Source: a virus
Lineage: Duplodnaviria; Heunggongvirae; Uroviricota; Caudoviricetes
Length of the DNA: 11,367 bases
Direction: 5' to 3' (one strand)
Virus record (IMG/VR): IMGVR_UViG_2718217897_000002
Shown here: one piece after another, positions 2,271 through 11,367 of the stretch
Numbering within the stretch: position 1 is the first letter of the stretch
Layout of the letters: each line of letters opens with the position of its first letter
Made by a program: the position numbers and the translations under genes
The notes under the pieces: model-generated
What the model was told of the DNA's origin: nothing
The model's input: only the letters and a program-made list of their open reading frames with translations
Database searches by the model: none

Positions 2271-2594
2271 TTAATCATCCATGGATGGATTGAGCTTATC
2301 TCGTGTTGATGTGGCGATTTGTCCTACATTTCTAAGCCAAGATTTCAAATCCTTGATATTGTCATTGATTTCATGAATATCTTCTTTTTTTAATCTGTTA
2401 ACATTATTTTCAATAATTTCAATGGATTGCTCAATATCAGATATAGTGAATGATAGTTTGTTCTTCTCATCTTTTATTGAGTTTTTAAGTGCTTCGTTCT
2501 CAGTCTTGAGGTCAGATATCTTTTGTTTTAAAGATGCCAGTTGGTACTGAACCACAATGAGTGCGATAGCTATCACGATAACTGTTGTATACAC
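2271..2594 (-). CDS. N-terminally membrane-anchored coiled-coil protein (about 107 aa)
   Basis: GTG at 2594 is preceded on the minus strand by a strong SD AAGGAGG (plus 2602-2608) with a 5-nt spacer. Product begins with a hydrophobic helix (YTTVIVIAIALIVVQY) followed by a heptad-like Lys/Glu/Asn-rich region. The longer ORF reaching 2810 would overlap the divergent gene and has no SD, so the short start is preferred. Confidence 0.5.
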   Translation of the reverse strand: MYTTVIVIAIALIVVQYQLASLKQKISDLKTENEALKNSIKDEKNKLSFTISDIEQSIEIIENNVNRLKKEDIHEINDNIKDLKSWLRNVGQIATSTRDKLNPSMDD

Positions 2595-2624
2595 ACCAAC
2601 CTCCTTAGTTTTGCGCAGGATACC

Positions 2625-2990
2625 ATGAAAAAAGTTAACATTGGAAACGTACCAAAGATGCTCGTTCCGCTCTTTGAGAGCGGTACAATTGTGTTTTGTA
2701 GAGACTTTCCAGAATGGCAACGCCTGCATCAAAAACTTGGCGTTGACGTGCATGACTCGGACGCCAACGGAGCGTCTCATACAATGAGTAGCGAGAATGG
2801 TGTTTTGCATGTGATAGGCGTGTTCAATGGCAAACTATCTACTATTGCCCATGAGTGCGCTCACATGGCATTCGATATCTGCTCAAGGGTAGGTGTTGAT
2901 GTTGAACCAGGAAGAGCCAACGAGACTTACTGCTACTTAATGAGCAGGCTTGTTGAGTTCTGCGAGCGACATATCAAAAAGCCGGAGTGA
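2625..2990 (+). CDS. Small HExxH-motif protein, possible minimal Zn-metallopeptidase (ImmA/IrrE-like motif), about 121 aa
   Basis: ATG at 2625 with AGGA at 2617-2620. Motif STIAHECAHMAFD (HECAH encoded at 2850-2864) with Glu 19 and 25 residues downstream. The ORF-track start at 2541 would overlap the divergent gene. Stop lies inside a hairpin (2979-2998). Fold and activity unverified. Confidence 0.5.
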   Translation: MKKVNIGNVPKMLVPLFESGTIVFCRDFPEWQRLHQKLGVDVHDSDANGASHTMSSENGVLHVIGVFNGKLSTIAHECAHMAFDICSRVGVDVEPGRANETYCYLMSRLVEFCERHIKKPE

Positions 2991-2998
2991 CCCGGCTT
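2979..2998. terminator. Hairpin between the convergent HExxH gene and the small basic protein gene; candidate bidirectional terminator
   Basis: Stem AAGCCGG (2979-2985) / CCGGCTT (2992-2998), 6-nt loop. On the minus strand it is followed at once by a T-run (plus 2971-2978 is an A-run); on the plus strand it is followed by T-rich GATTATTACTTTTT. Confidence 0.4.
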
Positions 2999-3003
2999 GA
3001 TTA

Positions 3004-3183
3004 TTACTTTTTGCTGTCTGGAGTTCGCTTATCTAATACCCAGCCATGACCTGGCTTTGTTGTTGGTGGAAGCCTTTCGTTGTCCTTGACGGTGGCAAAA
3101 TTGTCTTTCTTACCGCCGCGTGGGCCAACTTCTTGGTATATTCCGCCGTTTTTTCCTGTGTTTTCACCTGGTTTTTTCGCCAT
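3004..3183 (-). CDS. Small basic Gly/Lys/Pro-rich hydrophilic protein (about 59 aa)
   Basis: ATG at 3183 preceded by SD GAGGT (6-nt spacer). Product MAKKPGENTGKNGGIYQEVGPRGGKKDNFATVKDNERLPPTTKPGHGWVLDKRTPDSKK, no hydrophobic segment. It loosely recalls small uncharacterised YjzC-like proteins, but I cannot verify that. The overlapping plus ORF 3046-3240 is judged antisense. Confidence 0.5.
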   Translation of the reverse strand: MAKKPGENTGKNGGIYQEVGPRGGKKDNFATVKDNERLPPTTKPGHGWVLDKRTPDSKK

Positions 3184-3275
3184 GATATACCTCAACATAC
3201 ACCCGTTATTGGGCGATTAAATATTGATCTCATTTTATAAGTAGTCAATATGGCCCAGGTAAATGCAAAAATTAA

Positions 3276-3590: not shown

Positions 3591-3714
3591 AATCGTTTTG
3601 TTCATGTTGCATGGTTTTTAAATGAATAGAAGGTTATTTTTCAAAACAATTGCATCTTTGTCTGCAGTCATTCCGTTTTCTTCAATATCTAAATCTTCAA
3701 ACAGGATGACTAAT

Positions 3715-6300
3715 ATGCCTGATATAACCCCAAATGTTGTGATAGGTATGCCATCGCAACTCTTCACAATGGCTAGCTCTTTTAAAACCGTAGCAAATGG
3801 AAAAATTTATATCGGTAAGATTGACACAGATCCGGTAAATCCAGAAAACCAGATTCCAGTATATCTGGAACGAGAAGATGGTACTTATGTTCAGGTGCCA
3901 CAGCCAATCGTTATCAATGCTGCTGGATACCCGGTATACAACGGACAGATTTCCAAATTCGTTACCGTGCAAGGCCATTCTATGGCTGTTTACGATGCAT
4001 ATGGTACGCAGCAGTTCTATTTTCCGAATGTGCTTAAGTACGATCCTGATCAATTAAGACAACAATTAGAAGACCCGGAAGGTGCTAAAAAATATCATGA
4101 ATTGCAGATGTCTCGGTGGCGTGATGACGCTGACCCTCGCGGATGGGGAGCAAAAGGTGATGGCATCACCGATGACACATTATCTTTTCAAGAGTTAGAA
4201 AAACAAATCACAGGAAGGATTGTTGATCTAAGGGGTAATACATATATAACAGATCAAGTTTATGATGGAAATAAGTATATAAATGGCTATTTTCGCACAG
4301 AGAATCGATTACTGCCAGATGCTGATTTTACTGAAAAAAGAATACAAACTATAAAAAAGGGGATGTATACAGGTTTCAGATCTTCTACTCCTAATCATGT
4401 TAAGTCAGGGTTGCGACTGGCAACAATTAAAAATACTGTCATACAAGGTGCTGTTCTTGATTATTATGACAGTGTTCTTTATTGCTTGGTAAATGTGAGT
4501 GGCAGCGTTAGTTCTGGTGATGAAGTTAATAAAGTTGTTGCTTATAATTGGTTTGGGAATGAAGAGTTAACTCCTCTTTGGGAGACTAAAGGTAGTAGAG
4601 AATTAGGACATCAATGTCTTGGTTTAACCATAGGGCGCGTTGGTTTTCGTAACACAAGAGGCCAGTTACAGATATGGGGGTTAGCTGGCACAACTAAAGG
4701 AGAGGATCGCGCAAAGTATATCACCAGATTCACCCCTACTGATGGTGGTGAAATTGAACCAGAGTTTTTTCTCATATGGGAAGATGGTTACGAGAATCAG
4801 GTAAATGTTTTATGCACCGACCCTATGAGTCGATGGCTGATTACTACAGCAAAACGTTATGTTGGCCCAGGTGAGAGCCCATCAACACCAGATCAAATTC
4901 GCTATTATGTAAAAGTATTTGATACCAGTAAATTTATTAACCCGCAGGCGTACAATTACGATTATCGTAATGAAGCAACTTTTGAATTTGAAATTGCTGA
5001 TTTTGTGAGGGATATGCAAACAGTTGCGTGTGACGGTACTGCTATTTATTTTTGTCAGGCTGGATCTGCATATTCTTCAACCAGAAAATATTTGCATCAG
5101 TACACACTTGATGGTGTTTATCTTGGGGTGCAGCAAATACAGGCAGGTGCAGGAAGAGCCTATGAAATAGCAGATCCAAATGATACCGGAACGCCAGATG
5201 TTAGCAATCTTACATATGAACCAGAAGCAATGTTTTTCCGTATGATTGCAGGTGGGTATGACCTTGTAATGGGGAATACAAATGGCATACCAGATGGTGA
5301 TAGTGGGCGAGAAACTACATTTTACACATTAATGCCACAACAGGTAATGCATGTAAAAACAACATCAAGAAATCAGCCTGGTATTATCATTGATTCAACC
5401 CATGATATTGTCACTAACTCTGGTTTGTTAAGCCTTGGTAAAATTATGCCTGGTGGTGAAGTCATAGAGCAGGCAAACCTTGATGACAAAGGATTCACTG
5501 TTTCGAGGGCAACAACACAAGCCGCCCGTTATGATGCAAAGAATACGTTACGGAATGTAACTTTTCATGTTAGTGAAAAAGGTGATACCGGTATTTATGA
5601 CTTTACCAATGCTCAATGGATATTTAAATCTCCCTTATCAACATCTTCATATTCGTATATCGGTCAGTCAGCGGAGGTTAATGGCTATATAAGTGCTAAT
5701 AAAGATAATACGTCATCATGTGGGACATCATCTAAACGGTGGACGCAAGTATATGCAACTAATGGGGCAATAAATACTTCAGACCAGACATTGAAAACAA
5801 AGCCACTGACAGTAGAGCAACTTTCAGAAATCATGGAGGTGGATCAGGATGCAATTCTTGACGCATGGGGTGACGTAAATATTATCGTTTACCAGTGGTT
5901 GTCCGATATTAAGGCTAAAGGTTCGGATACTGCTCGTTGGCATTTCGGAGCAATTGCACAGCAGGTAAGAGATGCGTTTCTTGCAAAGGGGATAGATGGA
6001 ACAAGATTTGGCTTGCTATGTCATGATAAATGGGATGATGAGTACCAACCTGTAATGGCACAGCGCAAGGTGTCATTTATAGCTAAATCCCCTGAAGGAG
6101 AAGACATCGTTCACGAATACTTTGAAGAATACGATACTGGTGACACGGAACTGGTTGTACATGCTGGTGAGCGTTGGGGATTGCGTCCAGATGAATGTTT
6201 GTGGTTGGAGGCTGCATTCCAGCGAAGAAGGTGTGAACGTATTGAATCTCGTTTAACAGAGCTTGAATTGATAATTAAAAAAGCAAAAGAGATAGAGTAG
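3715..6300 (+). CDS. Phage tailspike protein: P22/Sf6-type N-terminal head-binding domain, central beta-helix (pectate-lyase-like) receptor-binding/depolymerase domain, C-terminal intramolecular chaperone (peptidase S74-like) domain
   Basis: N-terminus [18 protein letters not shown]...[27 protein letters not shown]...[15 protein letters not shown]...NVLKYDPDQ closely matches the P22/Sf6 tailspike particle-binding domain as I recall it. [13 protein letters not shown] (4141-4179) is the usual start of a right-handed beta-helix. C-terminal SDQTLK...[12 protein letters not shown] resembles the auto-cleaving chaperone domain of endosialidase and T5 L-shaped fibres. Start chosen at the ATG with AGGA 8 nt upstream; the ORF stays open back to 3622, with 3706 as an alternative start. 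Confidence 0.9.
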
Positions 6301-6588
6301 ATGGATAAAACCCCAATTCATCACGCACTTTGCGCTGTGGTCGCACAGGTACTGGTTGGTCTTTTTACCGGAAACTGGGCTTACGGAGCGATAGCCGGTT
6401 GTACATTCTTCATCGCTCGTGAACATACCCAGGCAGAATATCGCTGGATTGAAATGTTCGGACATGGCAAGCGAATGAATATGCCGTGGTGGGGCGGTTT
6501 TGATCCGCGCGCTTGGGATGTGGCAAGCCTGATGGATTTTTCTTTCCCAATTATCGGATGCTTATTGGTATGGATTCTTGCATCGTAG
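6301..6588 (+). CDS. Small integral membrane protein (95 aa), co-transcribed with the tailspike gene; unknown function
   Basis: ATG at 6301 directly follows the tailspike TAG (6298-6300). Hydrophobic N-terminal segment (ALCAVVAQVLVGLFTGNWAYGAIAGCTFFIA) and C-terminal segment (FPIIGCLLVWILAS) with a Trp-rich loop between. Sits where P22-like phages carry O-antigen modification genes. Confidence 0.55.
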   Translation: MDKTPIHHALCAVVAQVLVGLFTGNWAYGAIAGCTFFIAREHTQAEYRWIEMFGHGKRMNMPWWGGFDPRAWDVASLMDFSFPIIGCLLVWILAS

Positions 6589-6622
6589 TTAACACAGAGT
6601 TACCTATGAGACAAAACTAAGG

Positions 6623-6659
6623 TACACAAAGCTTTGCACTGGATTGCAAGGCTTTGTGT
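6623..6659. terminator. Long imperfect hairpin (about 15 bp stem) between the convergent membrane-protein and integrase genes; candidate bidirectional terminator
   Basis: ACACAAAGC-T-TTGCA / 6-nt loop CTGGAT / TGCAA-G-GCTTTGTGT (6624-6659). On the minus strand it is followed by TTAGTTTTG. No clean T-run on the plus strand. Confidence 0.3.
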
Positions 6660-6679
6660 CATTCGATAGTTAAGGTGGA

Positions 6680-7837
6680 TCACTCCACCTTTTCATCAAG
6701 CCAATCCGCCCACCACTGCATCATTTCTCTGCGCTTATCGAGATACTGAGCGTGGTTGTAAATTCCACGCACAGAACCGCCGTTGGCATGTGCCAGTTGC
6801 ACTTCAATAGCATCAGCAGGCCATTCGTGCTCGTTCATAATCGTGCTGAATTCATGCCTGAATCCGTGACCGCTTTCCAGACCTTCATAGCCGATTTGTT
6901 TGATCACAAGCAATACCGCGTTCTCGCAGATTGGCTTCTTCTTATCGTTGCGCCCGGAAAAAACAAACTCTGATACTGGTTTAGTGATTGAGCTTAGTGT
7001 AGTGAGAAGTTCAACCACCTGGTCTGACATCGGGACAACATGAATTTTGCGTCCCTTCATCACACTGGCGTCGATGGTGATAATCCTGTTTTCAAAATCG
7101 ACGTTCTTCCATAGCATGGAACGAAGCTCTTTTGTTCTTAGGGCTGTGTAGCGTAAAATTTTGGTAGCAATGAGCGATACGATACTTCCTGAAAATGTTG
7201 CAAGTGCTTTGTTGAATGCCGGGATCTGGTCGGCAGGTAAAAATGGGAAGTTCTTCTTGCGGTATCCCTTCATGGCGTCAGCAAGGTCAGGTGCCGGGTT
7301 ATATTTAGCCCTTCCGGTGACAATAGCGTAACGGAAAACCTCGCCGCATCTTCTGCGGGCTTTGTTGGCTCGCTCCATTGCACCGCGATCTTCAAATCTG
7401 CGGATTACTTCCAGAAGTTGCATCGGCTCAATATCCTGAATTTCAAGGGCGCCGATGATAGGTAAAATGTCGTCATCAAACATTTTGGCAAGTTCATTTG
7501 CATAGCCTACTGACCAGACTTGCTTCTTGTGCTCGTACCATTCCTTGTAAATCGCACAAAAGGAATTGTTGTTAGACGAAGCCTTTTTCGCCTTTACCGG
7601 ATCGATGCCAACCGAGATGTCTTTCCTCGCAGTCCATGCTTTATCCCTTGCCTCCTGCAAAGTCATAAGCGGATATTTTCCGACGGTCAGGATTTTCTCC
7701 TTACCGTCAATCTTGTAGCGAAGCTGCCAGACCTTTTTTCCGGATACAGGGACATAAAGGTACAGGCCATTACCATCGAGAAGGCGGTATGGTTTTTCTT
7801 TCGGCTTTGCTGCTTCAATCTGCTTAACGGTGAGCAT
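6680..7837 (-). CDS. intS: P4-type tyrosine integrase, IntS-like (385 aa)
   Basis: Translation from the internal ATG (MLTVKQIEAAKPKEKPYRLLDGNGLYLYVPVSGKK...) through ...HAQYLDKRREMMQWWADWLDEKVE matches prophage integrase IntS as I recall it. Gene starts 161 bp downstream of the argW 3' end in the same orientation, the classic tRNA-int arrangement. The ORF track extends 12 codons further to a GTG at 7873. Confidence 0.9.
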   Translation of the reverse strand: MLTVKQIEAAKPKEKPYRLLDGNGLYLYVPVSGKKVWQLRYKIDGKEKILTVGKYPLMTLQEARDKAWTARKDISVGIDPVKAKKASSNNNSFCAIYKEWYEHKKQVWSVGYANELAKMFDDDILPIIGALEIQDIEPMQLLEVIRRFEDRGAMERANKARRRCGEVFRYAIVTGRAKYNPAPDLADAMKGYRKKNFPFLPADQIPAFNKALATFSGSIVSLIATKILRYTALRTKELRSMLWKNVDFENRIITIDASVMKGRKIHVVPMSDQVVELLTTLSSITKPVSEFVFSGRNDKKKPICENAVLLVIKQIGYEGLESGHGFRHEFSTIMNEHEWPADAIEVQLAHANGGSVRGIYNHAQYLDKRREMMQWWADWLDEKVE

Positions 7838-7998
7838 GGGTAAAAATCCGGTGGGTAAAATTATTTTATCCACTTTTTACCCGTCATGGTGTGCGGCTGT
7901 CAACGATCTGACGCGAACCATGCCGAACTGTGAATCTAAGGAAGGCTTGATATTCAAGGGATTTTGCGGACTGGTACGGATGGGAGCGAACTGATAAA

Positions 7999-8073
7999 TG
8001 GTGTCCCCTGCAGGAATCGAACCTGCAATTAGCCCTTAGGAGGGGCTCGTTATATCCATTTAACTAAGAGGAC
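7999..8073 (-). tRNA. argW: tRNA-Arg (anticodon CCU)
   Basis: Minus-strand 75-nt sequence GTCCTCTTAGTTAAATGGATATAACGAGCCCCTCCTAAGGGCTAATTGCAGGTTCGATTCCTGCAGGGGACACCA folds as a cloverleaf: 7-bp acceptor stem, D stem GTTA/TAAC, anticodon stem AGCCC/GGGCT with loop CTCCTAA (anticodon CCT), T stem GCAGG/CCTGC with loop TTCGATT, encoded CCA. Confidence 0.9.
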
Positions 8074-10614: not shown

Positions 10615-10669
10615 GGTGATGCTGCCAACTTACTGATTTAGTGTATGATGGTGTTTTTGAGGTGCTCCA

Positions 10670-10945
10670 GTGGCTTCTGTTTCTATCAGCTGTCCCTCCT
10701 GTTCAGCTACTGACGGGGTGGTGCGTAACGGCAAAAGCACCGCCGGACATCAGCGCTATCTCTGCTCTCACTGCCGTAAAACATGGCAACTGCAGTTCAC
10801 TTACACCGCTTCTCAACCCGGTACGCACCAGAAAATCATTGATATGGCCATGAATGGCGTTGGATGCCGGGCAACTGCCCGCATTATGGGCGTTGGCCTC
10901 AACACGATTTTACGTCACTTAAAAAACTCAGGCCGCAGTCGGTAA
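10670..10945 (+). CDS. insA: IS1 InsA (transposition repressor / N-terminal part of the InsAB' transposase), 91 aa
   Basis: GTG start. Product contains the zinc-finger CPSC...CSHC and matches IS1 InsA. Confidence 0.9.
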
Positions 10946-11367
10946 CCTCGCGCATACAGCCGGGCAGTGACGTCATCGTCTGCGCGGAAATGGACGAACA
11001 GTGGGGCTATGTCGGGGCTAAATCGCGCCAGCGCTGGCTGTTTTACGCGTATGACAGGCTCCGGAAGACGGTTGTTGCGCACGTATTCGGTGAACGCACT
11101 ATGGCGACGCTGGGGCGTCTTATGAGCCTGCTGTCACCCTTTGACGTGGTGATATGGATGACGGATGGCTGGCCGCTGTATGAATCCCGCCTGAAGGGAA
11201 AGCTGCACGTAATCAGCAAGCGATATACGCAGCGAATTGAGCGGCATAACCTGAATCTGAGGCAGCACCTGGCACGGCTGGGACGGAAGTCGCTGTCGTT
11301 CTCAAAATCGGTGGAGCTGCATGACAAAGTCATCGGGCATTATCTGAACATAAAACACTATCAATAA
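10864..11367 (+). CDS. insB: IS1 InsB reading frame (catalytic part of the InsAB' transposase made by -1 frameshifting), 167 aa
   Basis: Product matches IS1 InsB. Frame is -1 relative to insA and overlaps its 3' end. The stop codon is the last three bases of the window. Confidence 0.9.
10921..10927 (+). other. IS1 programmed -1 ribosomal frameshift motif (A6C)
   Basis: AAAAAAC lies in the insA/insB overlap, where IS1 is known to shift frame to make InsAB'. Confidence 0.6.

Follow-up and report, generated by a model that had tools for sequence, protein, structure and literature searches.

A conserved small membrane-protein gene behind phage receptor-binding-protein genes, seen from a P22-like prophage remnant at argW

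The window analysed here, the whole stretch of 11,367 nucleotides (nt) recorded as IMG/VR virus IMGVR_UViG_2718217897_000002, contains part of a P22-like prophage lying next to the tRNA gene argW. Directly behind the tailspike gene of this prophage, at positions 6301-6588, is an open reading frame (ORF) for a membrane protein of 95 amino acids (aa), which is the subject of this report. An earlier note, made from the sequence alone, had proposed that it might be a new conversion or superinfection-exclusion factor, or else a remnant. The features of the locus are the following.

3622..6300, + strand: tailspike gene; 892-codon ORF, probably starting in fact at M32 (3715), the first residue of the head-binding domain (basis: Pfam)
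6286..6297, + strand: Shine-Dalgarno-like purine-rich stretch, AAAGAGATAGAG, within the final tailspike codons (basis: sequence)
6301..6588, + strand: coding sequence of the small membrane protein; 95 aa, PHROG 1443 family, TAG stop at 6586-6588 (basis: ORF list, sequence, PHROG, ratio of nonsynonymous to synonymous substitution rates, dN/dS)
6624..6659, + strand: perfect 15-bp hairpin accompanying the small gene in P22-like prophages (RNA fold z = -5.15 for 6586-6700)
6672..6695, no strand assigned: GC-rich 8-bp hairpin followed by UUUU, spanning the intS stop codon (6680-6682)
6680..7873, - strand: IntS-type tyrosine integrase gene (Pfam Phage_integrase, Phage_int_M and Arm-DNA-bind_3), annotated intS in homologous E. 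coli loci
7999..8073, - strand: tRNA-Arg(CCT), argW, the prophage attachment site (ARAGORN; Rfam tRNA)

The tailspike stop codon (TAG, 6298-6300) and the small-gene ATG (6301) are separated by zero intergenic bases, as the earlier note had read them. AAAGAG (6286-6291), a purine-rich, Shine-Dalgarno-like string, lies 9 nt 5' of the ATG inside the tailspike 3' end; other copies of the gene have stronger Shine-Dalgarno sequences (AAAGGAGG, AAGGAG) 6-8 nt ahead of the ATG. The upstream protein is a P22-type tailspike with Pfam Head_binding (E 4.5e-61, residues 32-144), End_N_terminal (177-224) and Peptidase_S74 (720-786) domains; the last is an intramolecular-chaperone domain borne by its C-terminal part, and several tailspike PHROGs match the protein too. 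Positions 3622-3714 form a 31-codon N-terminal extension before the head-binding domain, and RefSeq starts a 97%-identical homologue (861 aa) at the Met equivalent to 3715.

On the other side, 92 nt separate the small gene from the convergent intS-type integrase gene, which bounds the slot. The 15-bp hairpin, for which Rfam holds no family, is kept in loci L002, L004, L005, L006, L078, L083 and L084, at three different integration sites, and the sequences diverge straight after it; it is probably the 3' end of the small-gene transcription unit. The hairpin at 6672-6695, to which a consensus terminator scan gave no score, is a candidate bidirectional terminator between the small gene and intS.

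The small protein and its family

ORF 6301-6588 is a real and intact gene and a full-length member of its family. Residues 1-94 match positions 1-94 of the 97 in PHROG 1443 ('unknown function') with an E value of 5.8e-55. A search of 5.8 billion proteins returned 566 relatives at E<=1e-3, the named ones all 'hypothetical' and without a Pfam domain, and dN/dS is 0.13 among 41 distinct Escherichia alleles. These three results place the ORF far beyond chance, and by its substitution pattern the family is under purifying selection. A profile search over 1.84 billion cluster representatives gave 461 clusters (50% identity) at E<=1e-3; the best 150 of the 461 are all stand-alone proteins of 58-146 aa, with no fusion to a larger protein among them. 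Full-length relatives are mostly 90-110 aa long and shorter ones look truncated, and a profile made from distant members retrieved 1,703 proteins.

The opposite reading, that the ORF is non-functional, being either the N-terminal fragment of a disrupted larger gene or spurious, could point to the state of the surrounding prophage, itself a remnant, and to an annotation that nowhere goes beyond 'hypothetical protein'. We rejected it. The copy is full length, its profile match runs end to end, its homologues stand alone at about 90-110 aa, its dN/dS is low, its predicted structure has a pLDDT of 95, and close orthologues give a signal in RNA sequencing (RNA-seq). Practically no likelihood is left to it.

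The exact window protein is on record in E. coli (e.g., ANP33345.1). DNA matching window positions 6200-6680 is present in 2,066 of 5,426 complete E. coli genomes (38%), with a median of two places per positive genome, and most of these matches begin within a few bases of the small-gene ATG. The patterns TQAEYRW(I) and MPWWGGF were specific enough to fetch 70 genome loci and 434 viral loci. Relatives within PHROG 1443 include phage 21 gp24 (CPT_21_24, 'putative membrane protein'), Gally GALLYPH_17, Perceval PERCE_24 and ORF19 of the Halomonas phage phiHAP-1. The window protein is 85-87% identical to the E. coli phage copies and 38% identical to phiHAP-1 ORF19, and all of them agree with it in length, three-helix layout, motifs and position after a receptor-binding-protein gene. 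P22-type copies end in ...ILAS (95 aa) and carry the 15-bp hairpin, whereas lambda-type copies end in ...VNRG (97 aa) and are followed by a fragment of tfa. The protein is therefore not new to the databases, which know it only as hypothetical, yet the family is unnamed and very common.

Comparisons with characterised proteins were negative throughout. Pfam gave no hit at E<=0.1 beyond PhoR (E 0.073, below the cut-off), and a census of weak hits over 51 distant members showed no recurrent Pfam family. The small protein had no match in NCBIfam, no family among the PADLOC-DB defence profiles at E<=1, and a best E value of 0.67 in a sequence-profile search of the PDB. With Foldseek, the best PDB match had an E value of 3.6 (PsaL-like three-helix subunits), and the best match in BFVD was a 42-aa fragment of Escherichia phage anhysbys (partial alignment, 49% identity, E 0.56). 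The motif strings of the family occur in no paper of the searchable literature, and a literature search on phage 21 was likewise empty. The name 'ybl63', found on one NCTC record, gave no lead, and two other names met in the literature were discarded: GiPD474 is an ATPase-domain protein, and svsR lies in cI.

The earlier note had described two hydrophobic segments and a Trp-rich loop. The loop stretch is there (MPWWGGFDPRAW, residues 61-72), and so are two hydrophobic blocks by hydropathy, at about residues 8-38 (N-terminal) and 77-95 (C-terminal). The description is refined by the AlphaFold2 model (pLDDT 95.4, pTM 0.78), in which the N-terminal block is a helical hairpin and the protein has three helices, at residues 4-23, 26-53 and 74-94. 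The product is thus predicted to be an integral inner-membrane protein of roughly 10 kDa with three helices, laid out as follows.

6310..6369, + strand: helix 1, predicted transmembrane, residues 4-23, with invariant H8 and Q16 (basis: AlphaFold2, alignment, hydropathy)
6376..6459, + strand: helix 2, residues 26-53; a hydrophobic half (26-39), then a polar segment
6415-6450, + strand: near-invariant polar segment A-R-E-H-T-Q-A-E-Y-R-W-I, residues 39-50, in helix 2
6466..6516, + strand: conserved Trp-rich interfacial loop G-K-R-x-N-M-P-W-W-G-G-F-D-P-R-x-W, residues 56-72
6520..6582, + strand: helix 3, predicted transmembrane, residues 74-94, with S76, D79 and P83 conserved at its start

In an alignment of 81 sequences, H8, Q16, G29, R40, E41, Q44, A45, E46, Y47, W49, R58, P62, W64, G66 and F67 are invariant, and a further 25 columns, including D68, R70, W72, S76, D79 and P83, are at least 90% conserved. 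Relatives of 30-45% identity keep H8, R40, E41, Q44, A45, E46, R58, D79 and P83; R40, E41, Q44, A45 and E46 are at least 90% conserved even among these. Distant relatives also keep a Trp, W72 by hand mapping with columns not individually checked. The window protein has all the core residues (H8, R40, E41, Q44, A45, E46, Y47, W49, R58, P62, W64, G66, F67 and D79), which are mostly kept in the 51 distant sequences. In the model the conserved residues gather on one side of the membrane, where helices 1 and 3 begin, where helix 2 ends in an amphipathic extension, and in the loop. Lysines and arginines average 5.4 in the loop, 0.5 in the N-terminal tail, 0.14 in the hairpin turn and 0.56 in the C-terminal tail. 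There is no lipobox: H-A-L precedes Cys11, and position 11 is not conserved in the family.

Linkage to receptor-binding-protein genes and the conversion slot

The gene keeps constant company. In 79 of 80 Escherichia loci from IMG/VR, a tailspike gene, a tail-fibre gene with an S74 domain or an ORF of 92 aa lies upstream of it, 0-91 nt away and on the same strand. The upstream ORFs of the 80 loci are:

892/912-aa tailspike of the window type: gap 0 nt, 4 loci
Other Head_binding tailspikes: gap 34-91 nt, 8 loci
Tail-fibre ORFs bearing S74: gap 10-42 nt, 30 loci
92-aa acidic ORF (PHROG 1361): gap 12 nt, 37 loci
IS1: no gap given, 1 locus

The product of the 92-aa ORF is acidic and soluble, and PHROG 1361 is of unknown function (L091 5710-5988; L001 4710-4988, which is phage 21 gp23; PERCE_23). 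This ORF is the commonest upstream partner in lambda-like prophages, overlapping the side-tail-fibre stop by 4 nt; it comes after the side tail fibre in both phage 21 and Perceval, and inside macrophages its transcript in E. coli LF82 rises together with those of the fibre and the small gene. Its product may serve as a fibre chaperone, or else it may partner the membrane protein.

The same arrangement extends to other kinds of phage. P22-like prophages at bioA/ybhB, torT and argW all end in the order tailspike, small gene, att. In the P2-like phiHAP-1, the small gene follows a fibre-assembly gene with a 4-nt overlap and precedes the sheath gene, and a P2-like metagenomic contig shows the arrangement as well. 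A Chelativorans prophage (L166) has a LamG tail protein, the small gene (4-nt overlap) and then more tail genes. In lambda-like and podovirus-like metagenomic contigs the small gene stands between an S74 fibre or tailspike and the lysis cassette, and in the Cobetia phage Carin-5 (154 kb) it is preceded by a tailspike and followed by an appendage protein and a second tailspike. A receptor-binding-protein neighbour is also found in the metagenomic phages L158, L160, L162, L168 and L170, and tail or fibre PHROGs lie upstream in 7 of 10 gamma/beta-proteobacterial loci from Aeromonas, Comamonas, Pantoea, Leclercia, Acidovorax and Pigmentiphaga. Behind tailspikes and fibres of widely different kinds the protein keeps 85-100% identity, and DNA homology breaks at the start codon of the small gene.

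The family travels mainly, though not solely, with the receptor-binding-protein cassettes of podo-, sipho- and myoviruses that infect Proteobacteria, typically as their last cistron, and the linkage holds without att or int nearby. The association with the P22 conversion slot that the earlier note had drawn is real in that the slot is occupied, but the defining link is with receptor-binding-protein genes generally; nor do homologues follow tailspikes always, given the exceptions listed with the interpretation below. The idea that an S74 chaperone domain is always upstream was rejected, since it is frequent but missing from several tailspikes and LamG-type fibres.

Chromosomal copies recur directly 3' of ligA in Sphingomonadales and in related alphaproteobacterial metagenome-assembled genomes (L167, L052, L060 and L073), and the copy of Sphingomonas arvum has no phage gene within 9 kb. 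Because these ligA-linked copies are without phage genes nearby, the family is not exclusively viral. Of the genes considered as conserved partners for chromosomal copies in alphaproteobacteria, ligA alone recurs (3-4 loci); other 'clusters' proved to be artefacts of antisense ORFs in high-GC DNA.

Two further neighbours were seen on the 3' side. In lambda-type copies (L001 5295-5400; L007, L008, L121, L126, L141 and L155), a 3' fragment of tfa (...EAWKKYRVLLNRVDTS...) directly follows the small gene, which suggests a recombination event in which a cassette of fibre tip, 92-aa ORF or S74 domain, and small gene took the place of part of an older stf-tfa module. On four unrelated metagenomic contigs (L158 6267-6500, L160 6353-6601, L168 5267-5542 and L171 1077-1364), the product of the next gene, 77-95 aa long, begins with a coiled coil, ends in a transmembrane anchor and is presumably XhlA-like. 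An endolysin gene, a holin-like gene with two transmembrane segments and a spanin-like gene follow in L158, L160 and L168; L171 has no identified endolysin.

At argW, the position between tailspike and integrase is a lysogenic-conversion slot, as the earlier note had supposed from the layout of P22; the allelic replacement of its content by O-antigen-modifying genes in sister prophages bears this out. These argW/intS prophages share a backbone of DNA-transfer protein, small genes before the tailspike, intS, argW and yfdC. Within it, strain 19KM2326N carries a 369-aa acyltransferase gene, PK8276 a CatB-related O-acetyltransferase gene and LR-31 gtrA-gtrB-gtr(type) at the place where the window and strain SCZE5 carry the small gene, with both flanks shared. 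The gtr and oac products are membrane-associated and act on the receptor of the neighbouring tailspike. The slot's O-antigen genes (gtrA-gtrB-gtr(type), Oac-type acyltransferase, CatB-type) encode enzymes of 120-490 aa, whereas the small protein has 95 aa, no recognisable catalytic fold and an unrelated sequence, and its gene is also found in phages without att or int nearby.

The small protein matched none of these enzymes, in agreement with the earlier note, which could match it neither to GtrA nor to acetyltransferases. GtrA flippases (PF04138) have about 120 aa, four transmembrane helices and gtrB and gtr(type) partners; the small protein has three helices and no Pfam hit. As for acyltransferases of the Oac/OafA AT3 type (Acyl_transf_3) or CatB hexapeptide proteins (>180 aa), there was no Pfam or NCBIfam hit and no tblastn similarity to the slot's acyltransferase or CatB proteins. 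No gtr, oac or catB homologue stands beside the small gene in the enterobacterial loci examined, many of which stop at the prophage edge with the small gene last; the sole related match is a weak acyltransferase-like hit in a Leclercia locus (L020), 3-5 kb from the small gene.

Expression and the surrounding remnant

Co-transcription with the tailspike is the simplest reading in the window, since there is no room for a promoter and a consensus scan stayed at chance. Judged as a moron, the window copy has no gap and no promoter above chance, but it has a strong downstream hairpin. The co-expression suggested by the earlier note is thus plausible here, but it is not the only mode. The Gally prophage of E. 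coli LF82, with an 87%-identical protein, has a canonical terminator behind its tailspike gene and then an AT-rich gap of 240 nt ahead of the small gene, which in lysogens within macrophages is transcribed more strongly than the tailspike.

Published RNA-seq values for LF82 (PMC9928086, S1 and S4 Tables) are given as log2(fpkm+5), fpkm being fragments per kilobase per million, and may be blurred by multi-mapping among the three paralogues. GALLYPH_17 stands at 3.75 / 4.53 in stationary LB (lysogeny broth) culture, the prophage background, at 6.0-7.0 in culture medium at 1 h and 6 h, and at 7.9-8.7 in macrophages (PMC9928086). Its rise in macrophages is about 20-fold and takes it above the tailspike (7.8), with terL, portal and injection genes at 3-4 (PMC9928086). 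PERCE_24 increases from 3.19 / 3.79 in LB to 4.2-4.4 in medium and 5.6-6.4 in macrophages (log2 fold change 3.0, that is 8-fold; q 1.9e-5), together with its fibre and the 92-aa ORF (PMC9928086). There is a precedent in BTP1, a P22-like prophage: seven transcription start sites map to its tailspike region, from which lysogens make transcripts (PMC7067206). In lysogens the small gene can be transcribed outside the late programme, conditionally and depending on the copy.

The P22-like prophage in the window is a remnant, cut inside the DNA-transfer-protein gene at about 1830. Of this ejection protein a 146-aa C-terminal fragment is left (1830-2270; PHROG 770 positions 558-666 of 668), 16 nt from the 3' part of a second tyrosine integrase gene that retains only its catalytic half (1082-1813, - strand). 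Beyond the second integrase lie a 246-aa ORF and then a 63-aa ORF, presumably AlpA-like by its look and a candidate only. Strains AST19 and E100341 match both ends of the window at 99.9% and lack the middle, a pattern that suggests tandem elements at argW and a later deletion. Between the ejection-protein fragment and the tailspike, at 2271-3198, three small cargo genes occupy what is the sieA/immI slot of P22:

Likely start near 2594, - strand: protein with a transmembrane segment and a coiled coil, PHROG 5962
Likely start near 2625, + strand: protein with a 121-aa core, PHROG 1365
3004-3198, - strand: 64-aa YjzC-like protein, PHROG 3202

Gally genes 13-15 are equivalent to these in position, not homologous, and strongly induced in macrophages; homology of Gally genes 13 and 14 to window ORFs 2271-2990 was considered and rejected on comparison. 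The argW P22-like prophages of the window and of E. coli PK8276 (L173) have decayed independently and have retained a common right-hand block, made up of the ejection-gene stump, small cargo genes, receptor-binding-protein gene, slot cargo and intS. The same positional block is transcribed in Gally lysogens within macrophages, though its small cargo genes are not homologous to Gally's. The block may be selectively retained in decayed argW prophages. The small gene itself is intact in the window remnant and in strain SCZE5, whose tailspike is split by IS1.

Past argW, the ORFs correspond by alignment to yfdC and mlaA as annotated in homologous E. coli loci. The last feature of the window is an IS1 copy (10641-11367), identified by insA/insB-type ORFs and by the IS1 annotation under 99.9%-identical matches, with insA at 10670-10945 and an insB frame that starts at 10864 and continues past the window end. 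It occupies the position of yfdF after mlaA, and yfdF is probably disrupted.

Candidate functions and known systems

From its position and its company we infer that the small protein would have a conversion or exclusion function. Since a near-identical protein is found behind unrelated tailspikes and fibres, with the homology break at its start codon, the target is likely to be generic: we infer something common to all hosts, acted upon at the inner membrane, with receptor display or entry as the pay-off. Our preferred reading, held tentatively and quite possibly wrong, is a non-enzymatic conversion or exclusion factor that modulates the undecaprenyl-phosphate-linked surface-glycan pathway from the inner membrane. 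The protein would insert in the inner membrane with its invariant face (H8, R40-E41, Q44-A45-E46-Y47-R48-W49, R58, P62-W63-W64-G65-G66-F67-D68 and D79) at one membrane interface. This face would bind a conserved undecaprenyl-phosphate-linked glycan component, either a lipid-linked intermediate or machinery of the Wzx/Wzy/WaaL type, and the binding would change or reduce the polysaccharide receptor on the cell. Glycan-binding phages would then find lysogens or late-infected cells hard to attack, and debris would capture fewer of the progeny. The gene would be expressed by read-through from the transcript of the receptor-binding protein and, in some phages such as Gally, from a condition-dependent promoter of its own.

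A bolder version, which we consider doubtful, would make the family a universal 'receptor shut-off' module of tailed phages, inherited together with receptor-binding-protein cassettes in podoviruses, siphoviruses and myoviruses whose hosts range over the alpha-, beta-, gamma- and delta-proteobacteria. The protein would bind, or chemically act on, an undecaprenyl-phosphate-linked intermediate through a H/RE/QAEYRW/PWWGGFD/D site, remodelling O-antigen, capsule or exopolysaccharide display without a transferase. If true, phages would have a third way to drive seroconversion or exclusion, one that needs no enzyme, and the module would have cellular relatives in Sphingomonadales.

Several observations weigh against the glycan-pathway reading. 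Distant Sphingomonadales members sit in a housekeeping context, as in Sphingomonas arvum, where the small gene (L167 9001-9279) lies between ligA and prmA, and Sphingomonadales are not known to make lipopolysaccharide. The link to receptor-binding proteins is broken in one contig (L169), where the gene stands between terS-like and terL-like genes, and in the Aeromonas jumbo phage ACP1, where it stands between terL and a tail fibre; ACP1, like Carin-5, is a large phage carrying the family. A partner specific to Wzy or Wzx is hard to reconcile with strong conservation in hosts whose O-antigen machineries are unrelated. The count of positive charges predicts that the N-terminus and the loop are inside, in the cytoplasm, and the C-terminus outside, which disagrees with the TMHMM topology of the phage 21 annotators (loop outside). 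In the window and in many phages no bases separate the small-gene start from the upstream gene, or the two overlap, and the chance-level scores of the promoter and terminator scans, in the window and in phage 21 alike, fit a late lytic gene too. The third LF82 copy, TRITO_22 of Tritos, hardly responds (LB 2.82 / 3.79, medium 3.0-3.6, macrophages 3.2-3.8; log2 fold change 0.2) while its upstream fibre genes rise, and in LB all three LF82 copies stay below the cut-off that the authors set for morons (PMC9928086).

One rival is a late lytic helper (holin accessory, lysis timing, or maturation or release of fibre or tailspike) that would be expressed from the late operon and be irrelevant to lysogens. 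Its start codon lies close to, or within the end of, the upstream receptor-binding-protein or chaperone gene: the gap is 0 here and 10-12 nt in most lambda-like copies, and phiHAP-1, L162, L166 and L168 have a 4-nt overlap. The gene lies directly before the lysis cassette in L158, L160, L162 and L168; in L158, L160 and L168 the coiled-coil protein with the C-terminal anchor and then an endolysin follow it, and L162 has two holin-family genes (Pfam Phage_holin_8 and Phage_holin_3_7) ahead of the endolysin. Size and three helices resemble class I holins, large phages carry the gene, the upstream fibre often has an S74 chaperone domain, and the gene does not behave as a moron in LB. However, lambda-like, P22-like and P2-like phages and Carin-5 keep the gene with the receptor-binding protein, away from the lysis genes, and the long invariant polar loop and the short, nearly uncharged C-terminus are unlike holins; no holin family was matched in Pfam or PHROGs by the window protein or its 51 distant relatives. 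Lambda, P22, Sf6 and HK620 are not known to carry the gene, by which it would be dispensable for fibre or spike assembly. The Gally copy, moreover, is transcribed behind a terminator, independently of late genes, and non-phage copies exist. We regard a late helper as rather unlikely.

Superinfection exclusion of the Imm/SieA kind, in which the genome of an incoming phage is blocked at the inner membrane (at a channel or an inner-membrane factor) and surface glycans are left untouched, would suit a small inner-membrane protein with an invariant interfacial face, and a generic target would suit its independence from the type of receptor-binding protein. The gene is also prophage-end cargo, kept in remnants and transcribed in lysogens under some conditions. 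T4 Imm and HK97 gp15, the latter a moron inside the tail operon, are precedents for exclusion. P22 SieA is another (PMC10883804). Against this, no sequence or fold similarity to characterised proteins was found in the PDB and BFVD searches, in which no exclusion-protein reference surfaced. The exclusion cargo of P22-like phages sits elsewhere, between the ejection-protein genes and mnt, where the window has other small genes (2271-3198), and the known occupants of the tailspike-int slot all modify the receptor, not entry. It is difficult to name a single entry route that podo-, sipho- and myoviruses of alpha-, beta- and gamma-proteobacteria would all use, and the family also has chromosomal copies in Sphingomonadales; we hold this reading to be fairly improbable. 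Somewhat less probable still would be cargo that has nothing to do with receptor-binding proteins. It would act, as a small membrane enzyme or as a regulator, in some conserved envelope or lipid process to the host's benefit, for example in an intracellular or stressed state, and would lie behind receptor-binding-protein genes only because such junctions are recombination hot spots that gather cargo. The invariant H, R-E, Q-x-E, R, D, D constellation resembles a binding or catalytic site. Chromosomal copies in a housekeeping context, induction in macrophages and cell-culture medium, and the linkage exceptions L169 and ACP1 would all agree with it, and the P22 tailspike-att interval, the lambda stf-b region and the P2 G-FI interval are known cargo slots. 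The linkage persists, however, inside tail operons and between two tailspikes of a large phage, neither of which is known as a general cargo slot; an enzyme of only 95 aa would be very small, and no fold or family match supports chemistry.

The rigid linkage to receptor-binding genes and the interchangeability with gtrABC and O-acetyltransferases in one prophage slot suggest a general answer to a difficulty shared by all glycan-binding phages, be it re-adsorption, superinfection or display of the phage's own receptor. If surface polysaccharides are altered or entry is blocked, the gene would bear on serotyping, on host-range prediction in phage therapy and on the domestication of prophage remnants. 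Since an adherent-invasive E. coli induces it within macrophages, it may matter in infection too. The family has no name, structure or paper, though some 38% of complete E. coli genomes contain matching DNA, frequently more than once.

Among known systems, Cor (phi80, N15, T1) and Llp (T5) are receptor blockers encoded beside receptor-binding-protein genes that prevent re-adsorption or superinfection. They are FhuA-specific and co-vary with the receptor-binding protein, and Llp is an outer-membrane lipoprotein. The small protein shares the linkage to a receptor-binding-protein gene, but it has no lipobox and hardly varies from one unrelated receptor-binding protein to the next. Class I holins (lambda S105, P22 gp13) are likewise phage-encoded proteins of about 100 aa with three transmembrane helices, but they have short loops and a highly charged C-terminal tail, whereas the small family has a conserved loop of 34 residues, a tail of about 5 residues with 0.56 lysines and arginines, and no dual-start motif. 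The S-R-Rz cassette is far from the small gene in coliphages, and lysis genes are also remote in P2-like phages and in the window. T4 Imm, P22 SieA and HK97 gp15 resemble it as small phage inner-membrane proteins with a generic rather than receptor-specific action, but their genes are unlinked to receptor-binding-protein genes and they lack the REHTQAEYRW and MPWWGGFD motifs.

The working model for the preferred reading is provided by small non-enzymatic O-antigen modulators, namely Gnarl1-3 and the Wzy-alpha inhibitor Iap of phage D3 (PMC12373910). These are stand-alone proteins of about 31-90 aa, from lytic and temperate phages, that alter the O-antigen without being transferases (PMC12373910). 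The Gnarl proteins are not homologous to the small family, whose motifs are missing from the supplementary data of that study; Gnarl3 is reported to bind the cytoplasmic enzyme GalU, and no linkage to receptor-binding proteins is reported for the Gnarl genes (PMC12373910). The small protein falls into a known category, that of phage accessory membrane proteins in the conversion or exclusion slot, and what would be new is its linkage to receptor-binding-protein genes, its extreme conservation and its lack of an enzymatic fold.

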